Source: an uncultured Hyphomicrobiales bacterium (lineage in GTDB: Bacteria; Bacteroidota; Ignavibacteria; Kapaibacteriales; UBA2268). From it: 31,951 nt of DNA. Position 1 is the first letter of the stretch; each line of letters opens with the position of its first letter. The stretch is taken from NCBI GenBank assembly GCA_964493035.1, contig CAZBNQ010000002.1, positions 1 to 31,951 of the forward strand. Direction: 5' to 3'. The notes beneath the pieces are model-generated. The model worked only from the letters and a program-made list of their open reading frames with translations. It searched no databases and was not told the DNA's origin. Below are positions 7,672-31,544 of this stretch, piece by piece. Position numbers and translations under genes: made by a program.

Positions 7672-7791
7672 CCGATTTCCAGTCGGATTTCCAGTCGGAA
7701 ATTCCGTCGGATCTTAAGGCTGAAAATCAGTCGGATCTCAAGTCTGAAATTCCGTCGGATTTCAAGTTCGTTTTTCCGTTCAAAATTCCGC
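7672..7791. repeat. Ten degenerate tandem 12-bp units (consensus about CGGAWWTYCMGT), several with dyad symmetry
   Basis: ccgatttccagt cggatttccagt cggaaattccgt cggatcttaagg ctgaaaatcagt cggatctcaagt ctgaaattccgt cggatttcaagt tcgtttttccgt tcaaaattccgc. Confidence 0.9.
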
Positions 7792-13730: not shown

Positions 13731-14281
13731 GTGTGAATTTAATATTAGCTGAAGCAGAAGATGCCATATCTTCGTTGTTTTACTCAAGACAACGTAATAT
13801 GTCACAATTTTATCGTGGTGTCGGTGAAATATTACTATATTCATTATCAGAACAATTTGATTCAGAAGGTGTAAGATACTATGGTAAAAGATGGGAGCCA
13901 TTAGCAAAATCAACAAAAGAAGACAGAATTGCAAAAGGTTTTAGTGCCTCTGGCATACTTAATCGACGTGGTGGTTATGCAGGTTTAGCAGGTTCTTTCA
14001 CTTCTAAAATTTTTAGTGATGGAGTCTCTATTGGTACAAATTATGAATATGCTGCAATCCATCACTTTGGTGGAGTAATTTCCCATCCGGGTGGCACACC
14101 TTTTAAATTTGCTAAAAATGGTATTATTGTTTTTGTTAAAAAATCAACCAAAAATCCAGCTGGTTTTACACGCCCTCACAAAATTAGAATACCTGCAAGA
14201 CCAATATTCCCAAAAACTCTACCTCAAGAAGATATCGATGATATCATAGCTTTGTATTCACAAATAATGGGTTGGTCCTAA
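13727..14281 (+). CDS. Mu gpG-like virion morphogenesis/tail completion protein
   Basis: F-x-x-EG...WEPLAKST...IGTNYEYAAIHHFGG...IPARP. Confidence 0.85.
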   Translation: MSVNLILAEAEDAISSLFYSRQRNMSQFYRGVGEILLYSLSEQFDSEGVRYYGKRWEPLAKSTKEDRIAKGFSASGILNRRGGYAGLAGSFTSKIFSDGVSIGTNYEYAAIHHFGGVISHPGGTPFKFAKNGIIVFVKKSTKNPAGFTRPHKIRIPARPIFPKTLPQEDIDDIIALYSQIMGWS

Positions 14282-14625
14282 TTACCAACCCATTCTCCTG
14301 TTTGAATCTTTGGAAACTCTAATTTCCTATCTGTTAAATATATCCAAGCATCTACTTTTTTCATTTCCGAGTCAAATACGGGAGTTAATTCTCTTTTATA
14401 ATGCGTTGGATGCCCTTCCAATTTATCTAACTTCGCAAGTGTGAATGAATCTACTTCGTATAATTCTCCTTTGGCAATTCCACACCCTCGCTGTGCGTAT
14501 GGAAAATATCTCCCATCAAATAAAATTATACCTGGTGCTTTTGCTCTTTTGGGCTCATACCCTTCCAAAAATCTATGATTGCTCTTACCTTGCTTCAATG
14601 TTCCATATACAAATATCTTATGCAT
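14278..14625 (-). CDS. Gamma-glutamylcyclotransferase (AIG2/GGACT-like)
   Basis: IFVYGTLKQGKSNH, GELYEVD, LDKLEGHP-x-x-Y-x-R. Confidence 0.9.
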   Translation of the reverse strand: MHKIFVYGTLKQGKSNHRFLEGYEPKRAKAPGIILFDGRYFPYAQRGCGIAKGELYEVDSFTLAKLDKLEGHPTHYKRELTPVFDSEMKKVDAWIYLTDRKLEFPKIQTGEWVGN

Positions 14626-14860
14626 TCCCCTTTTCCTCCTTTACAAACTCGTATTCAATTAAATCTTCAACAAATTCCTTGATTGTTTCATATCTAATTT
14701 TCGCTCCATTCTGAAATTTGCAAGCTGCTGCAGTGTTTTTCATGAACACTTTGACATCTTCATCATATCCAAATAGTGAAGAATGGTTTAATTGTTCTAC
14801 CAAATCAGCATCATCCATGGCGAATACTGTCCCACCACCGAGCAATTTATATGTCTTCAT
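14618..14860 (-). CDS. Small hypothetical protein of the amidoligase cassette
   Basis: SD AAGGA; 8-nt overlap with GGCT; leader similar to that of the amidoligase gene. Confidence 0.75.
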   Translation of the reverse strand: MKTYKLLGGGTVFAMDDADLVEQLNHSSLFGYDEDVKVFMKNTAAACKFQNGAKIRYETIKEFVEDLIEYEFVKEEKGNA

Positions 14861-14905: not shown

Positions 14906-14935
14906 GAGAAAAACAACTGGCTTTTATGCCAGTTG
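14906..14935 (-). terminator. Intrinsic terminator-like hairpin over the amidoligase stop codon
   Basis: CAACTGGC-6nt-GCCAGTTG 8-bp stem followed by TTTTT on the minus strand. Confidence 0.55.
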
Positions 14936-15892
14936 AATTCTCCTGTTTTCAATGTAACTTATTAGCTCACCTGGTAAAAACTTTACCAAGGTTGAATCAT
15001 CTGCTTGATCGATTTTTGTTGTTTTTGAGTAATCAACCAATCTTGCTAAAAACAAAATCCAGTTAGAAATTTTATCGAATTCAATTGTACCGGAATGTTG
15101 TCTGAATTCTACTGTTCTGTGTCTCCAGTAAGATTCTATATTGATTTTAAAAAATCTTGAATGTAAGTTTAATGTGTTTTTAATTTTTGTAAGCATTTCC
15201 GAAATGTCTCTTCCGTTCACGCTTGCAATTTTTTCTTTTATATTTTCTACTCTAATCGATTTTGCGTAATAAGCATTATTCGCTCTTCTCGATTCTGGCA
15301 TAAAAGAATCAATAATTATTTCTAATTCAGCATAATTTATTAATAAATTTTTCCATGTTTTTTTTGTAAAATTTGAAGTGTCAAAGTGGATGTGCAATCC
15401 GCAAGTTTTATTGACTTTTGCTCTTTTATTTTTCAATGCTCTGCAAACCCTTTGAAGTTGATTTAATCCATCCTGACCTTCTAATACAGGGCTTACCAAT
15501 TCAAAAGGATATTTTCCGGTTATTGATGAATCGCTTACAATCTTCCAATTATCTCTGGTTATGTGGTTGTATGCCTCTGCATTGACCGAAATTCCTTCTG
15601 CAGTCAAAGCCTGCATTAAATTATTTATCTCAACTCCGTAAGCCTCAATCTCAACTCCAAATTTTAAGTTAAAAACAAAATCGTTTACTCTGTATATTGC
15701 ATCTTCAATCATCTCTGCAAAAGTTCTGCGTCTGATTTTTTCTGGATAAGTTTGAGCAAAAACATTCTGAACAAAACCGTATCCTACACCCATCAATTGT
15801 GAAACCTGACTTCTTGTAAATCCTAACTCAAACAACATTTGCATTTTCTTAGTCTTGCTTAAGTTGCTGTTTAAAATTTCTTCTTTTGTCAT
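14924..15892 (-). CDS. COOH-NH2 amidoligase type 2 with an N-terminal HTH
   Basis: FGVEIE, SDSSI, ELVSPVL, TCGLHIH, TVEFRQHSGT; N-terminal LFELGFTRSQVSQLMGVGYGFVQNV is HTH-like. Confidence 0.9.
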   Translation of the reverse strand: MTKEEILNSNLSKTKKMQMLFELGFTRSQVSQLMGVGYGFVQNVFAQTYPEKIRRRTFAEMIEDAIYRVNDFVFNLKFGVEIEAYGVEINNLMQALTAEGISVNAEAYNHITRDNWKIVSDSSITGKYPFELVSPVLEGQDGLNQLQRVCRALKNKRAKVNKTCGLHIHFDTSNFTKKTWKNLLINYAELEIIIDSFMPESRRANNAYYAKSIRVENIKEKIASVNGRDISEMLTKIKNTLNLHSRFFKINIESYWRHRTVEFRQHSGTIEFDKISNWILFLARLVDYSKTTKIDQADDSTLVKFLPGELISYIENRRIQLA

Positions 15893-15935
15893 TTTCTTCT
15901 AAGTCCTTTATTATCAATTGTTTAATTAACTTGAT

Positions 15936-15975
15936 GACAACTTAAGACAATTAAAGAACTAATGCAAGTTATATC
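15936..15975 (-). promoter_or_regulatory. Sigma70-like promoter, copy 1 of a conserved promoter motif
   Basis: GATATAACTTG-N19-TTAAGTTGTC, containing TTGCAT-17-TAAGTT. Confidence 0.7.
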
Positions 15976-16014
15976 TCTATATATTTCAAGTATTTGCAAG
16001 ATTTTTTACAAATT

Positions 16015-16038
16015 AAAAAAGCCGTCTTTCAACGGCTT
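16015..16038 (-). terminator. Intrinsic terminator closing the early operon after the Mor-like gene
   Basis: AAGCCGT-6nt-ACGGCTT with a T6 tract on the minus strand. Confidence 0.75.
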
Positions 16039-16080
16039 GCAGTGTACTCTATTTTTTTATTATGTTTTATTAATTTATAT

Positions 16081-16374
16081 CTACCTTCTTCTTTTCTGAT
16101 TTTCTTCCTTTATCTCCCTAATAAATTGTCTAACAACATCGACTGGTCTATCGATATTTCGGGATAGTATACTTGGTTCCTTATCAATGTTTTTGGCTAT
16201 ATATCTTTTTAATACATCATTCATATAGTTAATCTTTGGGAGCTGTATCTTATGTCCGTCCCAAACGCGAAGTATTGATCTGACAACATCAAGATTACTC
16301 TCTTCAGCAAGTATCTTCAAGTCTAGTGGCAGATCATCCACCGTTAAGTTCTCAAGGATTTTATCTACTTCCAT
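16081..16374 (-). CDS. Mor/C-like late transcription activator
   Basis: DDLPLDLKILAEE...VVRSILRVWDGHKIQLPK followed by a C-terminal HTH; last gene of the early operon. Confidence 0.65.
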   Translation of the reverse strand: MEVDKILENLTVDDLPLDLKILAEESNLDVVRSILRVWDGHKIQLPKINYMNDVLKRYIAKNIDKEPSILSRNIDRPVDVVRQFIREIKEENQKRRR

Positions 16375-16651
16375 ATGTGCCTGTATTAATATTATTAATA
16401 ATCTTTTTTACTTGATCTAACGAGTCTGCGACTATTGCTATCCCGTCACTTTTATGTATTTTATCAATATTATATTCTTGTAATTTTGTTGCTTTTTTAC
16501 CAGTGTCTTTTACCTCAATAGCAAGGAATCTACCCTTATAACATGCCAATAGATCTGGGACGCCCGTCTGATTGGCAAGAACTATTTTAACTACATAAGC
16601 TCCTTGTTCTATCAAATAGTCCTTGATTTTCTTCTGTATTTTCGACTCCAT
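16361..16651 (-). CDS. VRR-NUC nuclease (PD-(D/E)XK, Holliday-junction-resolvase-like)
   Basis: ESKIQ...GVPDLL...FLAIEVK...LQEY. Confidence 0.9.
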   Translation of the reverse strand: MESKIQKKIKDYLIEQGAYVVKIVLANQTGVPDLLACYKGRFLAIEVKDTGKKATKLQEYNIDKIHKSDGIAIVADSLDQVKKIINNINTGTYGSR

Positions 16652-17876
16652 TAATAAAATCCTTCTTGAAATAATAAGTGGTATAATCTTTTTTCTTTAT
16701 TACAGCCTTCATTATTTTTTCTTCAATGCCACCCTCAATAAATAACCAATGAACAATTGATTTTGTTTGTCGGTTCATAGATTGAAGTCTTGAACGTGCT
16801 TGCCAATATTGCAGAGATGAGAAATCAATATTATAAAATATCAATATATCTGCAGTACTTAAGTTAATCCCCATGGATCCTGCTCTTATCTGTGATATAA
16901 ATATTTTATTATTTGATTGATTAAATTCCTCTGGACTTTCAGTTGTATTGCCAAGTACTTTTTTAAGAACATTTCCTTCCGCAGTATATTTATAGAATAT
17001 TGCTATTTTTTTGTCTTTGTACTTGTCTTTAATATAACTTGCTTTAGAAATATCAATATATTTAATCTGTCCTGATTCAGTTATAACAGTACCTGAGCAT
17101 ATTTGATGAATCTTACTCTGCAATTTTACAGCTGAATCACATACAATTTCTTCACCATCTTGAAATCTAAAGTATCTATCCTTCACAATCTTTTTTATAA
17201 GTTTAATAGCATCTTCTCTTGGTGCTATATTAATTATTTCTTCAATAATTTCATCATTTTCAAAACCAGCTTCTTCACGTGTATAAGATAAAAAGTATTT
17301 CCTTATAACTAATTCGATTTTATCAATCAATGCGTTTTTATAGTCATTGATTGGTACACCGTTTATTTTTCTCTGAGTTACAATCACATAATCTTTAGCC
17401 CATTTATAAAAATTCGAATAGACATTAAATGGGCTATATTTTGATACCCAAAACTGATGAAATATTTGTGAATATGATTCAGGTGTCGGTGTTCCGGATA
17501 ACATTATCATTGGCAAATGATTAAAATGCTCTCTGATCACTTTTGTTACTTGATTTGGTTTAGGATATGCTCCGTTAATATGTGATTCGTCGATTATCAA
17601 AAGGTCGTAATCCTTGTTTAAATTATTTCGTAACTGTTCAAAATTAATAACATTTATCGAGAATTCAAAGCCTTCTCTTTCATAATCTTCATAAATTGAA
17701 TTAATAGCTTTTTTCTTAGTCAAAAAAAGAACGCTTTTAACCCCACAAAGCCTGGCTGTTTCGAGTGCTATTGTTGTTTTACCAACTCTCATTTCTATTG
17801 ATAAATACACAATAAACAAAGTTTTTAATATTTCAGATGCATTTTCAGCTAATCTTCTTTGATAATCTCTAAGCAT
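16587..17876 (-). CDS. SF2 (SNF2/DEAD-like) helicase
   Basis: LRDYQ, RVGKT, LIIDESH, LSGTP, MGINL, QARSR. Confidence 0.9.
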   Translation of the reverse strand: MLRDYQRRLAENASEILKTLFIVYLSIEMRVGKTTIALETARLCGVKSVLFLTKKKAINSIYEDYEREGFEFSINVINFEQLRNNLNKDYDLLIIDESHINGAYPKPNQVTKVIREHFNHLPMIMLSGTPTPESYSQIFHQFWVSKYSPFNVYSNFYKWAKDYVIVTQRKINGVPINDYKNALIDKIELVIRKYFLSYTREEAGFENDEIIEEIINIAPREDAIKLIKKIVKDRYFRFQDGEEIVCDSAVKLQSKIHQICSGTVITESGQIKYIDISKASYIKDKYKDKKIAIFYKYTAEGNVLKKVLGNTTESPEEFNQSNNKIFISQIRAGSMGINLSTADILIFYNIDFSSLQYWQARSRLQSMNRQTKSIVHWLFIEGGIEEKIMKAVIKKKDYTTYYFKKDFINGVENTEENQGLFDRTRSLCS

Positions 17877-18487
17877 GACAGATCTTCTCCTACATATTTA
17901 GCATGAAACATCAATTTTATTTTGTGGTTAACTTCGACTGCTTTTGGATAATCCTCATAAATCAACATTTGCCCCATTTCTTCAGCAGTGTAGATTACAC
18001 CGTCTTCGTAAATGGCTGATTCAGACTCCGCATCAAAAACAAAACTTTTTTGTAGAATCTCACTAAAATATTTATGTGAATTTTTATTCTGAACTGCAAT
18101 ACGATATGATTTTTTACCAATTGCTTCTTTCATGTATTGAATATTCTCAAGCATATCTTCACTTGGATATTTGTTATATTGTCTTTGCAGCTTTACGAGC
18201 ATATTTTCCATTTCTTCAACAGTCATGTTCGGCAAATCATCTTGTTCAGGCTCTACTTCTTCTTTTTTCGGTTCTTCTTGCTTTTGTGAGCCATAAACAA
18301 TAACGCGCTTTTCCTCTGCTTCTTCAGCAAAGGTTTGTTTTGGACTTTCTTGCTTTACTTCTGCAATACACATTTGAGCTTCAACTTGTCTTATCTTATG
18401 TTCGATAATCTTTTTCTGCCCGTCAGTCTTGCATTCAGCAAGTCTTTGTATCCAGTAATTTCTTATATCTTCTATTTGATTATTCAT
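17849..18487 (-). CDS. Hypothetical acidic/coiled-coil replication-region protein
   Basis: In-operon ORF between the origin and the helicase. Confidence 0.7.
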   Translation of the reverse strand: MNNQIEDIRNYWIQRLAECKTDGQKKIIEHKIRQVEAQMCIAEVKQESPKQTFAEEAEEKRVIVYGSQKQEEPKKEEVEPEQDDLPNMTVEEMENMLVKLQRQYNKYPSEDMLENIQYMKEAIGKKSYRIAVQNKNSHKYFSEILQKSFVFDAESESAIYEDGVIYTAEEMGQMLIYEDYPKAVEVNHKIKLMFHAKYVGEDLSCLEIIKED

Positions 18488-18506
18488 ATTGTTATTCTTT
18501 TTTATG

Positions 18507-18610
18507 GGTTATTTTAGTTACTTTAGTTACTCAATTTTGGGAAAACATATATATGTATATACATAGAGCTATTTTACCAAAAATCAGTAACTAAAATAAC
18601 TAAAGTAACT
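18507..18610. repeat. Candidate replication origin: 34-bp imperfect inverted repeat, three 9-bp iterons per arm, AT-alternating centre
   Basis: Left arm ggttatttt agttacttt agttact caattttgg; right arm (reverse complement) agttacttt agttatttt agttact gatttttgg; centre catatatatgtatatacat. Confidence 0.8.
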
Positions 18611-18611
18611 A

Positions 18612-20951
18612 TTAAAAAGCTCTTGGTTGTTCTCGATAGTTATTATTTAAGTCAATACCAATTAGATATTTAGCATTTTTGGTTCCACGTTCACTTGATA
18701 TACCTTCTCTGTTTTCTATAGCTCTATAGAATTTATTTTTAGGCATAGGTATTTCTTTAGTTTTATTACACCAATTGAGATAAGCATCAAGAAGATCTGA
18801 TGCAATTACTTTATTAGCTGGTTGTAAATCACAACATTCAGCGACAAAATCGGCTAAACGATCCTCTTCATCTCGATATTCTTTAGTGGCATTTACAACA
18901 TTTTCAGGAGGCTTTAATCCTTCTTTCAGATAAAGTTTCCATCCTTCAAGAATCCAATTAAAAATGCCGTTTTTCTCTAGGTCGAAATCAGCCATTAGTT
19001 CAGCTTGTGGCCTTTGTTCTTCCTTTGGGATGGTATTAGTAAATGGAATCATATGGAGTCTTCTCCAAATACCTTCATCAGTACCTTTTACACGAGGTTT
19101 ATGATTACCATAAAGCCAAAGAGTATGTGTTGGTTTAAAATCGAAGTAGTCTTTATGCATAAACCTTGCTGTAATTTGGTCTCCACCTGTGAGGTTTTTA
19201 ATTTTATTCTCATCGAAAGACCTATTATCAGGCAATTCTTCAGCAACCACCAAACGTGATCCTGGTAGTCGGGCCACATCATTGGGGATTGAATCGTTGT
19301 TTTTTAATAGTAACATTTCTGTAGGTGCTTTTTGAAAATAATCTCCAAAAACCATCTTTATTACGTTAAAAAATACAGATTTTCCGTTTTTCCCGGCTCC
19401 ATGGCAGAAGAAAAGAGCCTCTTCCAAGTGAGCACCACAGAGTGATAGCCCGAGGGATTTTTGAACAAACTTGATAGTGTCTAAACCAAATACTTGACTG
19501 TTTTCATATGTAACAAACATCGTATGTAGAGATGCTTCAAAGCAGATGGCATCTGCATCGGGTTCATACTCAACACCGGCACATTTTGACAACATATTTG
19601 AGGGACTATGAGGAAGAAACTCGTTGGTTTTGAGGTTATAAGTCCCATTTTTTAAGTTAAACAGATAAACATCCGAGTCAAAATCGGAATTTTCACAACG
19701 AATTCTTTGATCAGATGATGCCAGGGCAACCATAGCTTGTAATTGAGCTTTCGATTCGGATTTTAGAGCATGTTTGATTAATTCTTGCTTTTTTGTATCC
19801 TGTTGAATCGATTTAGCTTCATTATAAAGATTTCGGATGGTCTTTTTTGCCAGCTGCATTATTTTATTCGTTCTGTCCTCTTCCCAGTACCGACCGTTCC
19901 AAATATGCCATCTTCCCGAAGTATGGTTAAATCTGACTTTATTTGCATATTGGTCTGCAAATCGTTCAGAATTGCCTAACTCGGTTAACTGATATTGTAT
20001 GGATTCAGTTGTTTTATTAACAAGTTCCCCTCTATCATTTACTGTTACAGTTGAATATTTATTAAACAAAGATGAAGTATCATACCCATTTTGTTTAGCA
20101 TAATAAACAACTGAGGCAATAGTAGGTTTGGGGGATCTGTGTTTGATCCGATAAGCAGTTCCAACCTTATCATCAGGAGACCACGAGTCAACAAGAGATA
20201 TGGCAGTGTGTTCATCAAATGTATTTCCGATAGCAGATACAATCTTTCCCCATTCATCATAAGCCATCCGTTTTGGGATATAAGACAACATTTCTTTAAC
20301 TTGATCGGGAGTAATTGTATCGGGCATTTTCCGTTCATAACTCTGCAATGTTTTCTGCTCAGTGTCTGCCTGCCCTAAAATCCTATGTAATACAGATTTT
20401 TTGAGTTGTTTTCCGAACACTAAATATTCTGCATCTTTTGAGCCATAATAAAGCCTGTCAATGTTTTTACAAGATTTATCAGACTGAAATTTATTGATAA
20501 AAGCTTTCGCAATTTCAGCATACTTAGCCGGATCAGATATATATTCAGGCAGTAGGAAGACAATCCTAAATCTATGATGTTCTTCAGTATGTGAAGGAGT
20601 AGTATAGATAAGTAGTGCATTATCATGAAGCCAAGGATCAGCCATAGCGATATCAAGCGGCAAATAACCTTCCTGTATCGTCATAATCCTTTCATCATAT
20701 TTCTTTGTTGTAGGATTATAAACTTTAGTAGTATTGTCAATATCAATAGGCAGTAAAATTGCTTGGGATATGTCAGCAATTGCGGGCTTCTTGCTTGATG
20801 CACTAATTCTAAGAACACCCTGAGAGAAAGCATAACCACTCCTGATATGTTCAATCAGCATATCAGGAGTGAATTCAGTGTTTTCCCATCCGGGTTTGGT
20901 CGGATCGTCTTTATTGATGAGATTTCTATTTATAGATAGTTTGAATTTCAT
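18612..20951 (-). CDS. Primase/P4-D5-family SF3 helicase
   Basis: N-terminal primase-like IDID...YTTPSH...RFRIVF; PriCT-2-like YDEWGKIVSAI; TELGNSERF (D5-N); GAGKNGKS Walker A. Confidence 0.9.
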   Translation of the reverse strand: MKFKLSINRNLINKDDPTKPGWENTEFTPDMLIEHIRSGYAFSQGVLRISASSKKPAIADISQAILLPIDIDNTTKVYNPTTKKYDERIMTIQEGYLPLDIAMADPWLHDNALLIYTTPSHTEEHHRFRIVFLLPEYISDPAKYAEIAKAFINKFQSDKSCKNIDRLYYGSKDAEYLVFGKQLKKSVLHRILGQADTEQKTLQSYERKMPDTITPDQVKEMLSYIPKRMAYDEWGKIVSAIGNTFDEHTAISLVDSWSPDDKVGTAYRIKHRSPKPTIASVVYYAKQNGYDTSSLFNKYSTVTVNDRGELVNKTTESIQYQLTELGNSERFADQYANKVRFNHTSGRWHIWNGRYWEEDRTNKIMQLAKKTIRNLYNEAKSIQQDTKKQELIKHALKSESKAQLQAMVALASSDQRIRCENSDFDSDVYLFNLKNGTYNLKTNEFLPHSPSNMLSKCAGVEYEPDADAICFEASLHTMFVTYENSQVFGLDTIKFVQKSLGLSLCGAHLEEALFFCHGAGKNGKSVFFNVIKMVFGDYFQKAPTEMLLLKNNDSIPNDVARLPGSRLVVAEELPDNRSFDENKIKNLTGGDQITARFMHKDYFDFKPTHTLWLYGNHKPRVKGTDEGIWRRLHMIPFTNTIPKEEQRPQAELMADFDLEKNGIFNWILEGWKLYLKEGLKPPENVVNATKEYRDEEDRLADFVAECCDLQPANKVIASDLLDAYLNWCNKTKEIPMPKNKFYRAIENREGISSERGTKNAKYLIGIDLNNNYREQPRAF

Positions 20952-21304
20952 GCAAAGACCACCGAGTTTAATTCAACATCACATTCGGAAATAGGTGCAT
21001 AGTTTAATTTTTGAATTACTTGAGGCCTGAGTTTTAACAACAATTCTTCTGCTTTTTCATGCTCAATTTCAAGCATGAATTTAACAAATGAGCTAGAATG
21101 ATAGTAAGTACATCTATCTCTGTTAGCAATTTCAGTGGCCCGATTTATATTCGAGGATAAATGATAAGCAAGGTAAATAACGAAGTGTCTTTGAATAGCG
21201 ATATTCTCAACACGAGTTTTTGAAGCGAGGCTCTCCCAGTTAATATTAGTACTAATGGGAGACTTAATAGTATCAAATTGAATATATTCCATTTTTGACC
21301 TCAA
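20948..21304 (-). CDS. DnaA C-terminal-domain-like DNA-binding protein
   Basis: QRHFVIYLAYHLSS...NRDRCTYYHS resembles DnaA domain IV (R..amYL...RDHTTV.H). Confidence 0.55.
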   Translation of the reverse strand: MRSKMEYIQFDTIKSPISTNINWESLASKTRVENIAIQRHFVIYLAYHLSSNINRATEIANRDRCTYYHSSSFVKFMLEIEHEKAEELLLKLRPQVIQKLNYAPISECDVELNSVVFA

Positions 21305-21318
21305 ATCTATTGTTCAGT

Positions 21319-21558
21319 TTAATTATTTTCAAATTCGGGTTGGCCGGAGCCATCTATATTATTTATGTTTGATATTTTATATTTAAGTTTCAGGTGCAAG
21401 TCATGCACTATAATATCAGAGTTTGTTCTATTACCTTTACCCAAGAGGTAAGTAATATCGGCGATCCACATAAGGATGTGAGTATTTTCAATAAGCAGAT
21501 TATTTTTCTGGCAATAGAGCTCTGCTTTTCTTTGATTTCTTGCGATTACAATATTCAT
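21319..21558 (-). CDS. Hypothetical protein
   Basis: In-operon ORF. Confidence 0.5.
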   Translation of the reverse strand: MNIVIARNQRKAELYCQKNNLLIENTHILMWIADITYLLGKGNRTNSDIIVHDLHLKLKYKISNINNIDGSGQPEFENN

Positions 21559-21658
21559 CTTTTTCCTTTTGTGCTTTTAAAGCTTCAATTGTATCAGCAA
21601 CACGTTTGCTGCGTTCTAAATTCATTTTTTGGTAGGAAAGACTCCCATTTTTTTTCAT
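21500..21658 (-). CDS. 52-aa basic hypothetical protein (not in the ORF track)
   Basis: AGGTGCAAAATG start module; MKKNGSLSYQKMNLERSKRVADTIEALKAQKEKDEYCNRKKSKKSRALLPEK*. Confidence 0.6.
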   Translation of the reverse strand: MKKNGSLSYQKMNLERSKRVADTIEALKAQKEKDEYCNRKKSKKSRALLPEK

Positions 21659-21665
21659 TTTGCAC

Positions 21666-22013
21666 CTATTCCCATTTACCGTTAATAAAATTAAAATCTC
21701 TTGCGCTATTAAAGCTAAATTTGTTAACTATTCTATATGGAGTTAACCAATATAAACAAGCGTAGTATTTCATATTTTGGAATAGATTTCCTTCAGAGCC
21801 TAAGTAGAATACCATACATTTGGGCTCATCTTTGAAACTTCCAACATATCTAATAGGACTAACAAAATATCCTGAAAGAGTTGTTTCATCTCCAGCTTTA
21901 ATAATCTCGTTATTTACATTGAATTCCAAGGGTGCAAAGAACTCAGACTCATCTTCAAATGCGTCTAGTATAACACCAAGCCCATTGCCTCTATTATAAA
22001 TTACACGTTCCAT
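21666..22013 (-). CDS. Hypothetical protein
   Basis: AGGTG SD; in operon. Confidence 0.7.
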   Translation of the reverse strand: MERVIYNRGNGLGVILDAFEDESEFFAPLEFNVNNEIIKAGDETTLSGYFVSPIRYVGSFKDEPKCMVFYLGSEGNLFQNMKYYACLYWLTPYRIVNKFSFNSARDFNFINGKWE

Positions 22014-22021
22014 TTTGCACC

Positions 22022-22291
22022 TTAACTTTCTAAGTATTTGATTATATTGGTTATTTTGGTTCTTTTTTGTTCATTGTATAGTTTTTCAAGTTTAAAGTAT
22101 AAATTGAGATTTTTGTAATTACTTTTGTGTTTAATTCGTTCACTTATGCATATTTCATTGATATATATAGAGTATTCATATACTCTAATTGCGTCTATCC
22201 TATAACAAGGCTCATCAATATGTTCCATAATAAGGAATCCTTGTTCAATCAGCCTATCAATTTTGGATTCTATCATTTCATATGTAATCAT
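22022..22291 (-). CDS. Hypothetical protein
   Basis: AAGGTG SD; in operon. Confidence 0.7.
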   Translation of the reverse strand: MITYEMIESKIDRLIEQGFLIMEHIDEPCYRIDAIRVYEYSIYINEICISERIKHKSNYKNLNLYFKLEKLYNEQKRTKITNIIKYLES

Positions 22292-22294
22292 AAA

Positions 22295-22621
22295 TCACCT
22301 TTCAAGATGTAGCCATAAAGCAACATTTTTAGGCATTTTTAATCTTATCTTTTCAACCAATATAGCTGGGTATAGATGCCATTTCTTTTTACAAACAATA
22401 GCATATCCATCTTGATGGTAACCAAATCCATAAAACAATCCACTATTATAATGATGCCAGCCACATGGATGATCTCTGTAGATAATACCAAGAATCGAAA
22501 ATCCTTCTATTACGGCTTGCCGTGTTTTGATTTTGCTTTTTTTTATGATTAATTTAACCCAAACTTTATCGCCTGATCGTAAAACAAAGCCGGATTTAAA
22601 AGCTGATATTAATCGTTTCAT
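22295..22621 (-). CDS. Hypothetical basic protein
   Basis: AAGGTG SD; in operon. Confidence 0.65.
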   Translation of the reverse strand: MKRLISAFKSGFVLRSGDKVWVKLIIKKSKIKTRQAVIEGFSILGIIYRDHPCGWHHYNSGLFYGFGYHQDGYAIVCKKKWHLYPAILVEKIRLKMPKNVALWLHLER

Positions 22622-22637
22622 AAATCACCTTAAACTC

Positions 22638-22931
22638 TTAACAAAATATTGGAATATTAATTAAAACTTGGTTAGGGTCTACTTTTACGTTGATTCCCCA
22701 TTCCTCTTCTTTGTAATACTTTTGATATTCAGGATTTTTAACCCAGGTCATAAACGCCATTTCAGTTATTTCAGAGGCTTTATCTTCAGGGCAGAAAATA
22801 ATGTACAACAAAACTTTACAGCTCTTTATTTCAACCACCTTGAAAATCTTACAATTCTCCATGCGTTCAACTAAAGCTCTAAATTTTGTAGATAATTCAT
22901 AGTTGACATATAGCTCTAATGGTGCATCCAT
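22638..22931 (-). CDS. Hypothetical protein
   Basis: AAGGTG SD; in operon. Confidence 0.65.
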   Translation of the reverse strand: MDAPLELYVNYELSTKFRALVERMENCKIFKVVEIKSCKVLLYIIFCPEDKASEITEMAFMTWVKNPEYQKYYKEEEWGINVKVDPNQVLINIPIFC

Positions 22932-22932
22932 C

Positions 22933-23352
22933 TTACACCTTCAATTTACCGAATGGAGAACCGTCGGCAAAAATAAGGTTTTCAAATGCTTCATTATATT
23001 CCCATGTCCCATGGAAGGCAAAAATAAACGTGTCGTTAAATCCGATTACTATACCACCCCACTTGTCGGTATCCTTGTACTTAACTTCTTTTCCCATAAA
23101 TAAATGCCTATCTTTATACGTAAAATGAATATATTGGGGCTCTGGCTTAATACGATAACAATAATCATATAGGTTACTATTGATATTATCAATGTAGTGC
23201 CAACTATTATCATGGAAAATCTCCAAATTTATAGAAACTAGATGGCCATATCTATTAAACTGCCATTTAATTTTAGGAATAACTTCGGTTTGATAATATT
23301 CCAATTTCTCTTCTTTCGAGAGCGAAGCGAATTTTTCTGGGGTCATTTCCAT
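22933..23352 (-). CDS. Hypothetical protein
   Basis: ATG 23352 with an AGGAG SD is preferred over 23379; YRIKPEP motif is common in phage hypotheticals. Confidence 0.7.
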   Translation of the reverse strand: MEMTPEKFASLSKEEKLEYYQTEVIPKIKWQFNRYGHLVSINLEIFHDNSWHYIDNINSNLYDYCYRIKPEPQYIHFTYKDRHLFMGKEVKYKDTDKWGGIVIGFNDTFIFAFHGTWEYNEAFENLIFADGSPFGKLKV

Positions 23353-23353
23353 G

Positions 23354-24253
23354 TTAAATCTCCTCTGTATCGGATTCATAAGAAACTCGATCTATAATTG
23401 TAGATATGTATCCATGGTCAAGTTTATCAGGAGAAACTTCTCTAAGAATTGTGATAAGTTGAGCGAAGTATGCTACATCTACACCTATTAATTGTTCTTC
23501 TAAAACCTCAAAATCGTTTAAATTTAATTGAGATATTTGATACATAATTTTCAAATATTCTCCTGCTGTTATATTCCATCCTCTTTTTATGAACTTTTTT
23601 GTTCTGATTATTGAGGTTAGAGGATACTGGCTTCCTTGATATTTAAGGTATTTTGTTAATATTGACTCGAGTGCAGCCTTGTTTGTTACTAAACCTTCTT
23701 CGAATGTGAAATAGTTGGTTGCATGAACAAAATCGAACGTCTCATGAATAGCTTTGCTGTCTCCCCAGAACCTGATAACTATTTGTATATCATCTGTTAA
23801 TGATATTGCATTGGGAGAGAAATAAACAGGAGAATATGGATTCTCTGTTTTCTCAACACGAAAACCAGCACCACCAAAAAACAATTTTATTTGCTCTGGC
23901 TTTAATGTTCTTAAGGATACCCAATAACCATCATCTTTAATAAGAGCAGGAGTATCAATTTTCTGAGCCTCATGTTCAGAAATTAATTGTTTTTTTTCAA
24001 CCCCATCTAAAATTTTAATATTAGCGTGAGCATAAGGTTCTGTATAATATTTAACCAATCTCAATAAAACTGCTCTGTCTTTTATATAGACATCATAATC
24101 ATTCACTGTTTCATTTAACAAAAGTGATGTTATTGAACCTCCACTGACTAAGATGTTGCTTTTTAAATCTTTTTTAAGATCAAGATCGGATATAGAACTT
24201 AACCAATCTTCGAGTTTTGCGGATATAACTCTTTTTATAGTTTTTAATTGCAT
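23354..24253 (-). CDS. Phage nucleotidyltransferase-like protein (Pol-beta superfamily, CCA/poly(A)-polymerase-like head)
   Basis: VSGGSITSLL...NDYDVY (GG...DxD), TFDFVH, YPLTSIIRTKKFIKRGW. Confidence 0.6.
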   Translation of the reverse strand: MQLKTIKRVISAKLEDWLSSISDLDLKKDLKSNILVSGGSITSLLLNETVNDYDVYIKDRAVLLRLVKYYTEPYAHANIKILDGVEKKQLISEHEAQKIDTPALIKDDGYWVSLRTLKPEQIKLFFGGAGFRVEKTENPYSPVYFSPNAISLTDDIQIVIRFWGDSKAIHETFDFVHATNYFTFEEGLVTNKAALESILTKYLKYQGSQYPLTSIIRTKKFIKRGWNITAGEYLKIMYQISQLNLNDFEVLEEQLIGVDVAYFAQLITILREVSPDKLDHGYISTIIDRVSYESDTEEI

Positions 24254-24295
24254 TGTATATTCTCCTAATTATTTGTTTAATCAATTATTTACATG

Positions 24296-24335
24296 GACAA
24301 CTTAACATATAAACGCGTTAAAGTCAAGTTATATC
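24296..24335 (-). promoter_or_regulatory. Sigma70-like promoter, copy 2 of the conserved promoter motif
   Basis: GATATAACTTG-N19-TTAAGTTGTC, containing TTGACT-17-TAAGTT with an extended TG. Confidence 0.75.
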
Positions 24336-24341
24336 CTTGAT

Positions 24342-24944
24342 TTATTTGAACTTATATAAATTCTTCTTATAAAATATATTTCTATGTTTAATGCTATCGA
24401 TCCATTCTTCTGTAGGCTTAATGGCTTTGGCTCCAGTCATAGCACCAACTATTACATAGTCAAAGTCTTTAAAATCGAATCCCGTAAAATCACCAAGTAA
24501 AGGCTCAACTGAAGCGAATGTGTGATTTGGTACAGATTCAACTGCGATTTGGTATATGATATTCCAGTCTGAGGGTTTGGTGATTGTGGCACCTAACCAG
24601 CAATTTGCAGGGAATCTATAATGGACAAACCTGTCAAAAAGTTTGGTTAAGAATAAAAATCTATGTTGAGGAAGTTTTTCAGCCACTTCAATAATCTGCT
24701 CGATCCATGGATATTGAACACCATCGCCCATGATATCACACATTGAGCCGACGAATATTGATGATGGGTTTTTAAGCCCAAATGGTTCTTTTAATTTTTC
24801 TGGAAAGAATTGAGGTACGGACCAATCTTTTACAAATTCAAAGCGATCATTTAATTTTTTAGCATAACAATAAGAGCATCCATTTTTGCACCCAATAATC
24901 GGATTCCATGTATAATCAGCCCATTCAATTTTTGTCTTAGTCAT
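24342..24944 (-). CDS. DUF5131 / phage Gp37Gp68 family radical-SAM-like protein
   Basis: TKIEWADYTWNPIIGCKNGCSYCYA (CxxxCxxC), FVGSMCD, FLFLTK, SVEPLL. Confidence 0.9.
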   Translation of the reverse strand: MTKTKIEWADYTWNPIIGCKNGCSYCYAKKLNDRFEFVKDWSVPQFFPEKLKEPFGLKNPSSIFVGSMCDIMGDGVQYPWIEQIIEVAEKLPQHRFLFLTKLFDRFVHYRFPANCWLGATITKPSDWNIIYQIAVESVPNHTFASVEPLLGDFTGFDFKDFDYVIVGAMTGAKAIKPTEEWIDSIKHRNIFYKKNLYKFK

Positions 24945-28420: not shown

Positions 28421-28503
28421 ATTCCTCCGTAATTTTGTAAGTTAATTATTTTAACATGCCCTCGCCGAAGAGTCAAAAAATAGGCTTGGGCATTTTTATT
28501 TAG

Positions 28504-28627
28504 TAGCACGGGCAGGATTCGAACCTGCATTGCGATTTAGAGTGTACGCTAGCTTTTCACGATTTATTTTTAGACTCTATTCGCAAAGTGTCGCACACTT
28601 TTGCGTCTGCCATTCCGCCACCGTGCT
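28504..28627 (-). tRNA. tRNA-like RNA (124 nt) with class-II-type D arm, GCG at the anticodon position and a 56-nt variable region; 3' end reads CTA
   Basis: Acceptor AGCACGG/CCGTGCT, D arm GCG-GAATGGCAGA-CGC, stem AAAGT/ACTTT with loop GTGCGAC, T arm GCAGG-TTCGAAT-CCTGC. Confidence 0.7.
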
Positions 28628-29174: not shown

Positions 29175-29522
29175 TTAAAGAATCTTTGTTTTAAAAGTTT
29201 GATTTTCACTTAAATCTATATTAATAAGTGCCTTTTCTATTGATTCTTGAGTAAAGTAAACTTTCTTCCCGAGCTTTTTTTGAGCGATTTTGCCTGATTT
29301 TACCCATTTATAAAGAGTAGATAAGTTTACTTGTAGCATTTCTGCAGCTTCAAGTCGAGTAAGTAATTTGTGTTCATCTTTAATTTGAGGAACATTTATT
29401 TTTCTTTCTATGTCAGTTATTTTATTGATAATGAAATCCAATTTACTTTCAAGTGAAGGTAAACTAATTGAAATTGAATTTGACATATTATTCTCCATGA
29501 TTATCTTCTCTTTAATGTTCAA
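29175..29522 (-). CDS. Excisionase-like HTH_17 protein
   Basis: LLTRLEAAEMLQVNLSTLYKWVKSGKI...KVYFTQESI. Confidence 0.8.
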   Translation of the reverse strand: MNIKEKIIMENNMSNSISISLPSLESKLDFIINKITDIERKINVPQIKDEHKLLTRLEAAEMLQVNLSTLYKWVKSGKIAQKKLGKKVYFTQESIEKALINIDLSENQTFKTKIL

Positions 29523-30342: not shown

Positions 30343-30365
30343 ATCATTGCGCCTTAGCTATTATA

Positions 30366-30437
30366 TTTGTAAATAAATTTTGTTAATTTTTTTTGTTAAA
30401 AAGTTTTATAAAAATTTTTGTTAAAAAATTTGTAAAA
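30366..30437. repeat. Five TTTGTWAA copies upstream of the RHH-like gene (operator-like)
   Basis: tttgtaaa 30366, ttttgttaa 30378/30391/30416, tttgtaaa 30429; TATAAT on the minus strand at 30360-30365. Confidence 0.5.
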
Positions 30438-30462
30438 TTGTTTTATAGTTTATATTTTTGAT

Positions 30463-30717
30463 TTATGGAGTTAATAAGTTCATGTTAGTTTGTTGATTTA
30501 GGTACTGAAGAAATTGGTTTTGGTCCTGTGAATGAACGTTTAGAGCAACTGTAAGGCAATTCTTGATAGTAAGCGCATAGTTAGGTTCATTGTCTGCTGT
30601 AACGTACCCGAATTTTTTAGCGATTATTGATAATGGTTCTTTTAACTCGGGTGATACACCAAAGAATGTACGGCTTTTGCCAGCTGATTTATTTTGATTA
30701 TTGTTTTTGGTTTTCAT
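30463..30717 (-). CDS. Cro-position small regulator, RHH-like
   Basis: First gene divergent from the repressor; RTFFGVSPELKEPLSIIAKK...YALTIKNCL. Confidence 0.55.
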   Translation of the reverse strand: MKTKNNNQNKSAGKSRTFFGVSPELKEPLSIIAKKFGYVTADNEPNYALTIKNCLTVALNVHSQDQNQFLQYLNQQTNMNLLTP

Positions 30718-30774: not shown

Positions 30775-30860
30775 AATTACAAATGTAATTTAACAGAAAT
30801 TTTTGTTTATTACAAGAAATTTTTGTTTTATTTTTGTTATTTTTGGCATTTTTTTGTTTT
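30775..30860. promoter_or_regulatory. Immunity/switch region: palindrome, direct repeats and phased T-tracts
   Basis: AATTAC-AAAT-GTAATT at 30775-30790; AGAAATTTTTGTTT at 30795 and 30815; TTTTG with G at 30805, 30825, 30836, 30845, 30856. Confidence 0.55.
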
Positions 30861-30887
30861 TTAATAAATATTTCATACTGGATTAAT

Positions 30888-31544
30888 ATGAGTGACGAGT
30901 ATAAAAGATTAAATGAAGTAGCAAAAAAGTATTTTGAGAATCTAGGTGTTTTAGCCATCAAAATTGGTAAAACACAGGGCTATTTTTATTCTTATAAAAA
31001 TACTTCCAATTTTGGTAGACAATTATTAGATGAATTGCGAATAAAAGCGAATATAAATCCTGATTTTATTATGACAGGCAATGGTAATATGTTAATTTCG
31101 GACCAAGATATTTCTATCAAAGAAACAGAACACAAAGGTGTACCATTTTACCCAATTGATGTCACAGCTTCATTTGTTAGAAGTTTTGATGATATTCAAG
31201 CAGTACCGGATTTTTACGTGGATTTTAAACCACTAAATGATTGTACTGCATATTTTACTGTTGTAGGAGACTCTATGTATCCTAAATATTCACCTGGAGA
31301 AATAATTGCTATAAAAAAAATTGTTAACCATGATTATATTCAATGGGGTGAAGCTTATCTTGTCATTACTACTGAAGAAGCAAATAGCATGAGAACTATA
31401 AAGTTGGTACATAAACACAAAGATAGAAGATTTATTATTCTCAGATCTGCTAATCCTCAATACAAAGGTGATATGGAAGTAGCAAAAGAACATATATTAG
31501 AAATGTTTATTGTAAAAGGGCGTGTAAAGCTCGAAAATTTATAA
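30888..31544 (+). CDS. cI/LexA-like repressor with an S24 autopeptidase domain
   Basis: N-terminal HTH, INPDFIMTGNG linker, VVGDSMYPKY (catalytic Ser), RTIKLV (Lys), LRSANPQY; start at MSDEYK. Confidence 0.9.
   Translation: MSDEYKRLNEVAKKYFENLGVLAIKIGKTQGYFYSYKNTSNFGRQLLDELRIKANINPDFIMTGNGNMLISDQDISIKETEHKGVPFYPIDVTASFVRSFDDIQAVPDFYVDFKPLNDCTAYFTVVGDSMYPKYSPGEIIAIKKIVNHDYIQWGEAYLVITTEEANSMRTIKLVHKHKDRRFIILRSANPQYKGDMEVAKEHILEMFIVKGRVKLENL

Follow-up and report, generated by a model that had tools for sequence, protein, structure and literature searches.

Two copies of one element in a temperate-type phage

The window analysed here is a whole contig of 31,951 bp (CAZBNQ010000002.1), one of 432 contigs in a 3.09-Mb assembly, and it is a phage of temperate type. 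Its minus strand carries two copies of an element made of two short boxes and a leader: site 1, in front of a gene for an amidoligase with a putative helix-turn-helix (HTH) domain, and site 2, in front of a gene for a predicted nucleotidyltransferase. An S24-type CI repressor gene (30834-31544, plus strand) faces the long train of minus-strand genes in which both sites lie. This train opens with small early genes (including that of an HTH_17 protein), two exonuclease-like genes, DUF4406 and DUF5131; it continues with site 2, the gene of a 299-aa protein, small open reading frames (ORFs) and the genes of a D5-type primase-helicase, an SNF2-type helicase, VRR-NUC and a 97-aa protein. Its last part consists of a terminator (16038-16019), site 1, the amidoligase gene, another terminator (14935-14914), an 80-aa gene and GGACT, and it converges there with a plus-strand packaging operon (ParB-methyltransferase, terminase, Mu-type portal, Mu F).

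By pattern scan, the minus strand carries GATATAACTTG-N19-TTAAGTTGTC at 15975-15936 (site 1) and at 24335-24296 (site 2). Box 1 (GATATAACTTG) occupies 15975-15965 and 24335-24325, box 2 (TTAAGTTGTC) occupies 15945-15936 and 24305-24296, and 19 nt separate the boxes at either site. The two spacers have the same base at 5 of 19 positions, no more than expected by chance. When up to three mismatches were allowed, no further match was observed in the window, nor in the remainder of the 3.09-Mb host assembly; none of 100 shuffled controls contained a match, and analytically about 1e-7 second exact copies would be expected. These results confirm what a first, sequence-only reading of this DNA had reported, namely identical boxes and spacing around unrelated spacers. 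That reading had also seen ATTAAACAA shortly past both sites, and we found it 9 nt past box 2 at site 1 (15926-15918) and 14 nt past box 2 at site 2 (24281-24273).

Both sites are intergenic and oriented toward the next gene, whose ATG lies about 50 nt downstream. Site 1 (15936..15975, minus strand) is composed of an extended -33 element with the core ACTTG (box 1), the 19-nt spacer and a -7 element with the core TAAGTTGT (box 2); it scored 48.8 bits with the family matrix and an E value of 3.8e-16 with model R1. Site 2 (24296..24335, minus strand) scored 30.1 bits and 2.0e-6, respectively. The site 1 leader (15893..15935) contains, besides ATTAAACAA, the ribosome-binding stretch AAGGACTTA at 15908-15900, and the site 2 leader (24254..24295) a Shine-Dalgarno-like TAGGAGAA at 24267-24260. 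Leader blocks are conserved among related phages (alignment A4).

The boxes fit a minor promoter class of the host

The host assembly contains 124 matches to type-IX-secretion (T9SS) sorting domains and one SusD match, and the host is therefore a member of the Bacteroidota. General sigma-A promoters of this phylum consist of a -33 TTG and a -7 TAnnTTTG. Hence we framed the boxes as -33 TTG and -7 TAnnTTGY. The sequence-only reading had recognized hexamers (TTGCAT or TTGACT, 17 nt, TAAGTT) that are indeed present, but the sigma-70 -35/-10 frame in which it placed them was wrong for this host.

Upstream regions of host genes showed a peak of TAnnTTTG 30-50 nt 5′ of start codons, with TTG 19-20 nt further upstream. 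A second class, TAnnTTG[CT], peaked at the same 30-50 nt, with TTG at N20 in 15 cases against a background of about 3. TAnnTTGY is a minor promoter class in this host, enriched at the expected distance from genes. It corresponds to motif SM5 of Flavobacterium psychrophilum, whose box lies at -12 to -5 and for which promoter mutagenesis at conserved bases lowered activity (Guerin et al. 2021, PMC9723704).

At sites 1 and 2, TTG lies 20 nt 5′ of TA, which is the spacing preferred by the host and falls within the 19-20 nt of sigma-A promoters. The -7 core TAAGTTGT is one T short of the sigma-A box TAnnTTTG and fits the SM5-type box TAnnTTGY, whose TA and TTG stand one base closer together than those of the sigma-A consensus. 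As in SM5-type and sigma-A promoters, a TTG precedes the TA-nn-TTG-pyrimidine box of the phage sites by about 20 nt, at a matching distance from the start codon. Compared with the host SM5-type motif, the phage copies add AC, in most cases TGn, AG at ‘nn’, CATCA at the presumed start and the conserved leader. With the position of the SM5 box (PMC9723704) as a guide, transcription is predicted to start near 15932 at site 1, on the A of the conserved CATCA, and near 24292-24294 at site 2.

The best score of the position matrix elsewhere in the host genome (the other 3 Mb) was 16.6 bits, against 48.8 and 30.1 bits for the two sites. The suspicion that the motif is simply the generic promoter consensus of the host, occurring at many host genes, was thus not borne out; together with conservation in relatives (below), the matrix scores show that the motif is neither a generic host promoter nor a product of chance. 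A host gene for a secreted 294-aa protein (L066, G099:C20, 43840-43932, minus strand) has ACTTG, 19 nt and TTAGATTGC upstream, so host promoters of this class do include near-matches to the phage motif.

Concerning translation signals, AGGA, GGAG or GAGG occurred 4-18 nt before the first ATG in about 30% of the long host ORFs of assembly G000, against 5.5% of random 15-mers, and the phage cassettes all carry AAGGAG or AAGGAC. This Shine-Dalgarno-like signal exceeds that usually reported for Bacteroidota (PMC6847099).

The element follows cassettes in related phages

Metagenome contigs and nine genomes of the host’s family supplied homologues of the HTH-amidoligase (46-56% protein identity), of which the 14 closest were examined. 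Each of these 14 genes was preceded by ACTTG-N19-TTA[AT]GTT at a distance of about 85-100 nt from its ATG, with a variant box 2 in one of them (L025); the motif search upstream of such homologues, proposed with the sequence-only reading, was thus positive for all 14. In an alignment of 19 instances, ACTTG, TTA and TT were invariant and the spacers scrambled. Variation of box 2 concerned mostly ‘nn’ (AG, CA, TG or AC), as expected of a -7 box, and several instances also had the G of TTG replaced by A (TTAAGTTA, TTACATTA). Most -7 boxes of relatives, TAAGTTGC/T, TACATTGC or TATGTTGC, fit TAnnTTGY; some, TAAGTTAG, are off-pattern. The claim that identity extends beyond the needs of a promoter core holds, and both sites look like real promoters of one conserved family linking accessory genes.

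The exact pattern was found again in another Bacteroidota assembly (L001), with perfect boxes, a different spacer and a helicase gene of 64% DNA identity. Neither IMG/VR nor the JGI metagenome contigs contained the exact 21-base pattern, and no near-identical match to the 11-kb region turned up among phage records. Two other pattern matches were rejected as chance: L002 lies within a coding region of a Clostridia genome and G138 has no genes in common with the phage. With the reversed pattern as a control, the number of 2-mismatch matches was similar to that of the true pattern.

Further copies of the element head varied cargo in relatives. An extra copy precedes GGACT in L023 and G102, acidic proteins of 81-84 aa in G102 and G145, related acidic proteins of 68-70 aa in L025 and G199 (whose copies share one unusual box 2, TTACATTAG) and a 94-aa protein in L024; those of G173 and G194 precede tiny ORFs or none. 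The pairing of amidoligase and nucleotidyltransferase is particular to the phage of the window, and the second copy of its relatives heads other cargo.

Two families of small, very acidic proteins are thereby found behind promoter copies, one of 81-84 aa with a TLEWxW motif and one of 68-70 aa with a QPNYP motif. Their loci are L054 (G102:C273, 266-348, minus strand), L065 (G145:C5, 1501-1592), L086 (G199:C13, about 1247, minus strand) and L025 (11324). Both are candidates for counter-defence or DNA-mimic proteins.

The motif accompanies the cassette in phages with quite different replication modules. It was absent from contig 4 of G145, a backbone relative with a nearly empty accessory locus and no cassette, and no copy was found in G209 behind the gene homologous to DUF5131. 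Another backbone relative, G082, also gave no motif match, on a contig that stops right past VRR-NUC and so is not usable as a control. In public runs, a biofilm variant has a recombinant site 2, with half of the spacer and everything upstream changed, and a sediment variant diverges at 15949. Varied cargo, cassette-linked occurrence, a backbone relative without the motif and recombinant variants thus show that the module belongs to swappable cassettes: the motif follows cassettes and not the phage backbone.

Genes headed by the two sites and other features

Right before site 1, an intrinsic terminator-like hairpin (16019..16038, minus strand; 8-bp stem with 4 GC pairs, then a T run) closes the upstream operon. 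The HTH-amidoligase gene (P0001, 322 aa; 14924..15892, minus strand) encodes an Amidoligase_2 domain at residues 75-285 (Pfam PF12224, E 3.8e-45), and the second terminator-like hairpin (14914..14935, minus strand) lies directly past its stop codon. The remainder of the cassette, which spans 14278..14860 on the minus strand and is syntenic with relatives, consists of the gene of the 80-aa protein (14618-14860) and that of GGACT, a gamma-glutamyl cyclotransferase (14278-14625). The 80-aa gene is preceded by the same ribosome-binding stretch as in the site 1 leader (AAGGACTTA, 14875-14867), without promoter boxes. A conserved protein of 76-88 aa is always encoded behind the amidoligase, also in Cytophagales prophages; it is found at 14618-14860 in the window, 1368-1634 in L023, 11065-11304 in L024, 11073-11309 in L025 and 2570-2806 in L026. 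It could be a partner or a substrate of the amidoligase.

The first gene behind site 2 (P0002, 299 aa; 23354..24253, minus strand) encodes a protein with a GGS...DYD nucleotidyltransferase motif that matches phrog_4400. The precomputed label Pfam PF26128 ‘Gad2’ is carried by 120 homologues among those listed and by P0003, which is 96% identical to P0002; a PDB sequence search with P0002 gave no useful match. Gad2 is an anti-Gabija protein of Bacillus phages and a predicted nucleotidyltransferase, and Gabija inhibition is known just for the Bacillus phage Gad2 and one homologue (bioRxiv 10.1101/2023.05.01.538930). P0002 can be labelled a putative Gad2-family member from its homologues. Ten IMG/VR loci with Gad2-like homologues (44-62% identity) had no upstream motif, so the motif is not tied to the Gad2-like family. 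Presence/absence polymorphism was observed at 23357-24258, where one sediment-metagenome contig skips exactly the Gad2-like ORF, and at 21655-22011, where a 115-aa ORF is skipped in sediment and wastewater contigs.

Downstream of P0002, 16081..23379 (minus strand) contains small ORFs and the genes of a DnaA_C-like HTH protein (20948-21304), the D5-type primase-helicase (18612-20951), a 212-aa protein, the SNF2-type helicase (16587-17876), VRR-NUC (16361-16651) and the 97-aa protein, all on the minus strand. No strong terminator-like site (at least 3 GC pairs and a stem of at least 6 bp) was detected in this interval, where the lone minus-strand hairpin is weak and lies within the primase ORF (19688-19672). 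Site 2 therefore also heads the replication operon. The enzyme modules behind the two sites had been described as having no obvious replication role; the run of site 2 into the primase-helicase, SNF2 helicase and VRR-NUC genes contradicts this.

The DUF5131 gene (24342..24944, minus strand; Pfam PF07505, E 2.6e-39) ends just 5′ of site 2, and its protein matches the PADLOC candidate-defence models PDC-M30B and PDC-M41B with E values of about 1e-40. Between the genes of the 212-aa protein and the primase-helicase, long inverted repeats (TAGTTACTTTAGTTA and its complement) surround an AT-rich core (18488-18611), a possible origin or processing site; the sediment variant has 18600-18721 swapped for 117 different letters. 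In the early region, three to four direct copies of a TTTTAACAAA-like sequence fill a 120-nt gap between two genes (30343-30462), another copy precedes the gene at 30717, and these copies may be operators of the immunity region. At 28501-28627 (minus strand) we observed a tRNA-like sequence that contains a long insert and whose ends resemble an acceptor and a T arm; no tRNA was called in the window by ARAGORN. Finally, an array of GAAATCCGAC-like repeats of about 12 nt occupies 7672-7791, within a 219-nt divergent region between a 425-aa gene and the ParB-methyltransferase gene.

What reads the element

We consider it probable, if well short of certain, that sites 1 and 2 are copies of a cassette-borne promoter-plus-leader module that the host RNA polymerase recognizes. 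Its core would consist of the -33 TTG, 20 nt and the -7 TAAGTTGT, in keeping with the TAnnTTGY class used by the host. Transcription would start about 4-5 nt past box 2, at the conserved CATCA, and produce a leader of about 40 nt ending with a strong purine-rich ribosome-binding stretch. Cassettes of accessory genes would carry the module, which in this lineage would always head the HTH-amidoligase gene, and further copies would head small cargo genes differing from phage to phage; here, the extra copy would serve the putative Gad2-family nucleotidyltransferase and, via read-through, the replication genes. The position of site 1 directly behind a terminator is consistent with its being a promoter. 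Since the same promoter stands before both, the amidoligase and nucleotidyltransferase units are probably switched on together. The sequence-only reading had gone further and seen in the two units a private regulon: the shared promoter stands and co-expression is likely, but a dedicated regulon is unproven and the pairing is not conserved in relatives. The extra conserved bases (AC before TTG, frequent TGn before TA, AG at ‘nn’) are under selection, and they may be read by the polymerase alone or by a phage factor.

Several points weigh against reading by the host polymerase only. Neither the AC that invariably precedes TTG nor the AG conserved in the -7 box belongs to the host consensus, and a bare polymerase leaves them unexplained. 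Among the homologues in Cytophagales prophages, ACTTG is kept in three of four despite a different -7 box, which hints at a specific reader. Also, site 2 heads replication genes, which a lysogen would be expected to keep silent, so that some control is expected. Lastly, public runs yielded no transcript ends for the predicted starts; the only ‘RNA’ runs containing the phage are assembled contigs, probably of DNA.

A dedicated regulator of the module is, overall, possible but the less probable case. If there is one, it might be a phage DNA-binding protein distinct from the amidoligase that reads the extended boxes with delayed-early or middle timing, as CII, Mor and C do on lambda and Mu promoters; candidates are the HTH_17/MerR-like protein (29175-29522), the S24-type CI repressor and the DnaA_C-like protein. 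Non-core positions that vary little or not at all among diverged phages and are foreign to the host consensus argue for such a protein, as do a site 2 leading into replication genes that need lytic-cycle control and the recurrence of HTH_17-type proteins among relatives. We nevertheless hold it unlikely: the motif tracks cassettes despite different early and replication modules, a box variant travels with its cargo gene (L025 and G199), and no candidate was seen to co-occur with the motif. The sequence-only reading had instead proposed the HTH fused to the amidoligase, which would bind the boxes and autoregulate its own gene together with the nucleotidyltransferase gene, in the manner of Aca proteins or of the enzyme-repressor BirA. 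Part of this stands. Residues 1-50 are strongly conserved and predicted with confidence as four helices (per-residue model confidence, pLDDT, 87-94); the top-ranked matches listed in a fold search were mostly HTH DNA-binding domains (ParB, LuxR-type and sigma region 4 among them), if statistically weak (best E 0.08); and several homologues gave sub-threshold Pfam HTH matches. The N-terminus is for these reasons likely an HTH, and its putative recognition helix is nearly invariant, as is ACTTG. A PDB sequence search with the N-terminal profile gave no useful match, and a feature search of the protein atlas with this domain returned amidoligase clusters only. The presence of the motif upstream of all 14 homologues (and of ACTTG alone in three of four from Cytophagales) would agree with autoregulation, but the former association holds by construction, because these loci were picked through the amidoligase. 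Moreover, G113 (76% complete) has retained a perfect promoter next to the 13 codons that remain of the amidoligase gene, and in G145 (98% complete) the promoter heads an acidic 81-aa gene; the HTH-amidoligase and its HTH domain were searched and not found in either genome, which argues against that protein being required. With no covariation of the inverted repeat either, the amidoligase HTH as the regulator is unsupported and somewhat disfavoured, and autoregulation of this kind appears quite improbable. Decidedly unlikely, too, is a wider scheme in which a dedicated circuit, with the promoter-leader module as its signature in cis, would control the timing of swappable anti-defence or host-takeover cassettes and would be read by a phage protein, possibly the amidoligase-fused HTH acting as an enzyme-regulator. 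If it were true, the cassettes of this circuit would include the amidoligase/GGACT unit, the Gad2-like nucleotidyltransferase and the small acidic proteins, and the motif would be a guilt-by-association handle for new counter-defence genes.

The boxes might also have little regulatory meaning and persist mainly as homology patches for cassette exchange by recombination. This would account for mosaic breakpoints inside promoters of near relatives (site 2 of the biofilm variant, 15949 in the sediment variant), for spacer types shuffled between amidoligase copies and second copies across phages, and for perfect boxes shared by the window and L001 despite a DNA identity of only 64% between their helicase genes. 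However, patches of 10-11 nt offer too little homology for recombination to be efficient, conservation falls on the positions of a promoter core at exact host spacing and variation on the ‘nn’ of the -7 box, which makes this explanation very improbable. As for the inverted AACTT/AAGTT half-sites noted in the sequence-only reading, the pentamers are present and 83% of cells are pairable across the 19 instances, but 198 of 500 column shuffles reach the observed value. The arms show one double change only, changes in box 2 break pairs and are never compensated in box 1, RNAalifold predicted no consensus pairs, and the arm centres, 27-29 bp apart, are off helical phase. An inverted-repeat operator in the promoter is thus not supported, and a symmetric operator or RNA hairpin seems close to negligible as an explanation. 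RNA-structure readings were rejected on the same grounds (no RNAalifold consensus, pairing no better than in shuffles). A promoter for an extracytoplasmic function (ECF) sigma factor (AAC, 16-17 nt, CGT-like) was likewise dropped, the conserved downstream element being too far and not CGT-like.

Comparison with known systems and meaning

Morons are promoter-gene-terminator units inserted among the backbone genes of temperate phages. Site 1 resembles them: it forms a terminator-promoter-gene-terminator unit at a module junction (16038-16019 to 14935-14914), with its own promoter and terminators, the cargo differs among related phages, and the promoter travels with the cargo. Unlike in morons, many cargo genes have here one homologous promoter and leader, and the site 2 unit, uninsulated by a downstream terminator and feeding a backbone operon, does not qualify. 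In Aca anti-CRISPR operons, an HTH autorepressor binds inverted repeats in a strong early promoter. Similarly, a protein bearing a putative HTH lies here right behind a strong-looking conserved promoter, and one unit has a gene putatively of an anti-defence family (Gad2); in contrast, an inverted-repeat operator finds no support, the putative HTH is part of an enzyme and stands behind site 1 only, and two genomes in which a search did not find the HTH protein still carry the promoter. The CII promoters of lambda and the Mor and C promoters of Mu are likewise few per phage, with identical extended sequence around -35, and the phage of the window has Mu-like head genes; our sites differ from them in having complete host-type -33 and -7 elements and in following cassettes, not the backbone.

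To our knowledge, a reusable promoter-leader module over diverse cargo in Bacteroidota phages is an undescribed variant of the moron theme, although nothing categorically new. Promoters of Bacteroidota phages have, as far as we know, barely been described, and few counter-defence genes are known in the phylum. Here, one promoter-leader module would mark variable accessory genes across a phage lineage, via the little-studied TAnnTTGY class. If this is true, it would provide a sequence handle with which to locate cargo genes, likely counter-defence genes among them, in uncultured Bacteroidota phages, and natural templates with which to study the form of polymerase that reads TAnnTTGY promoters.

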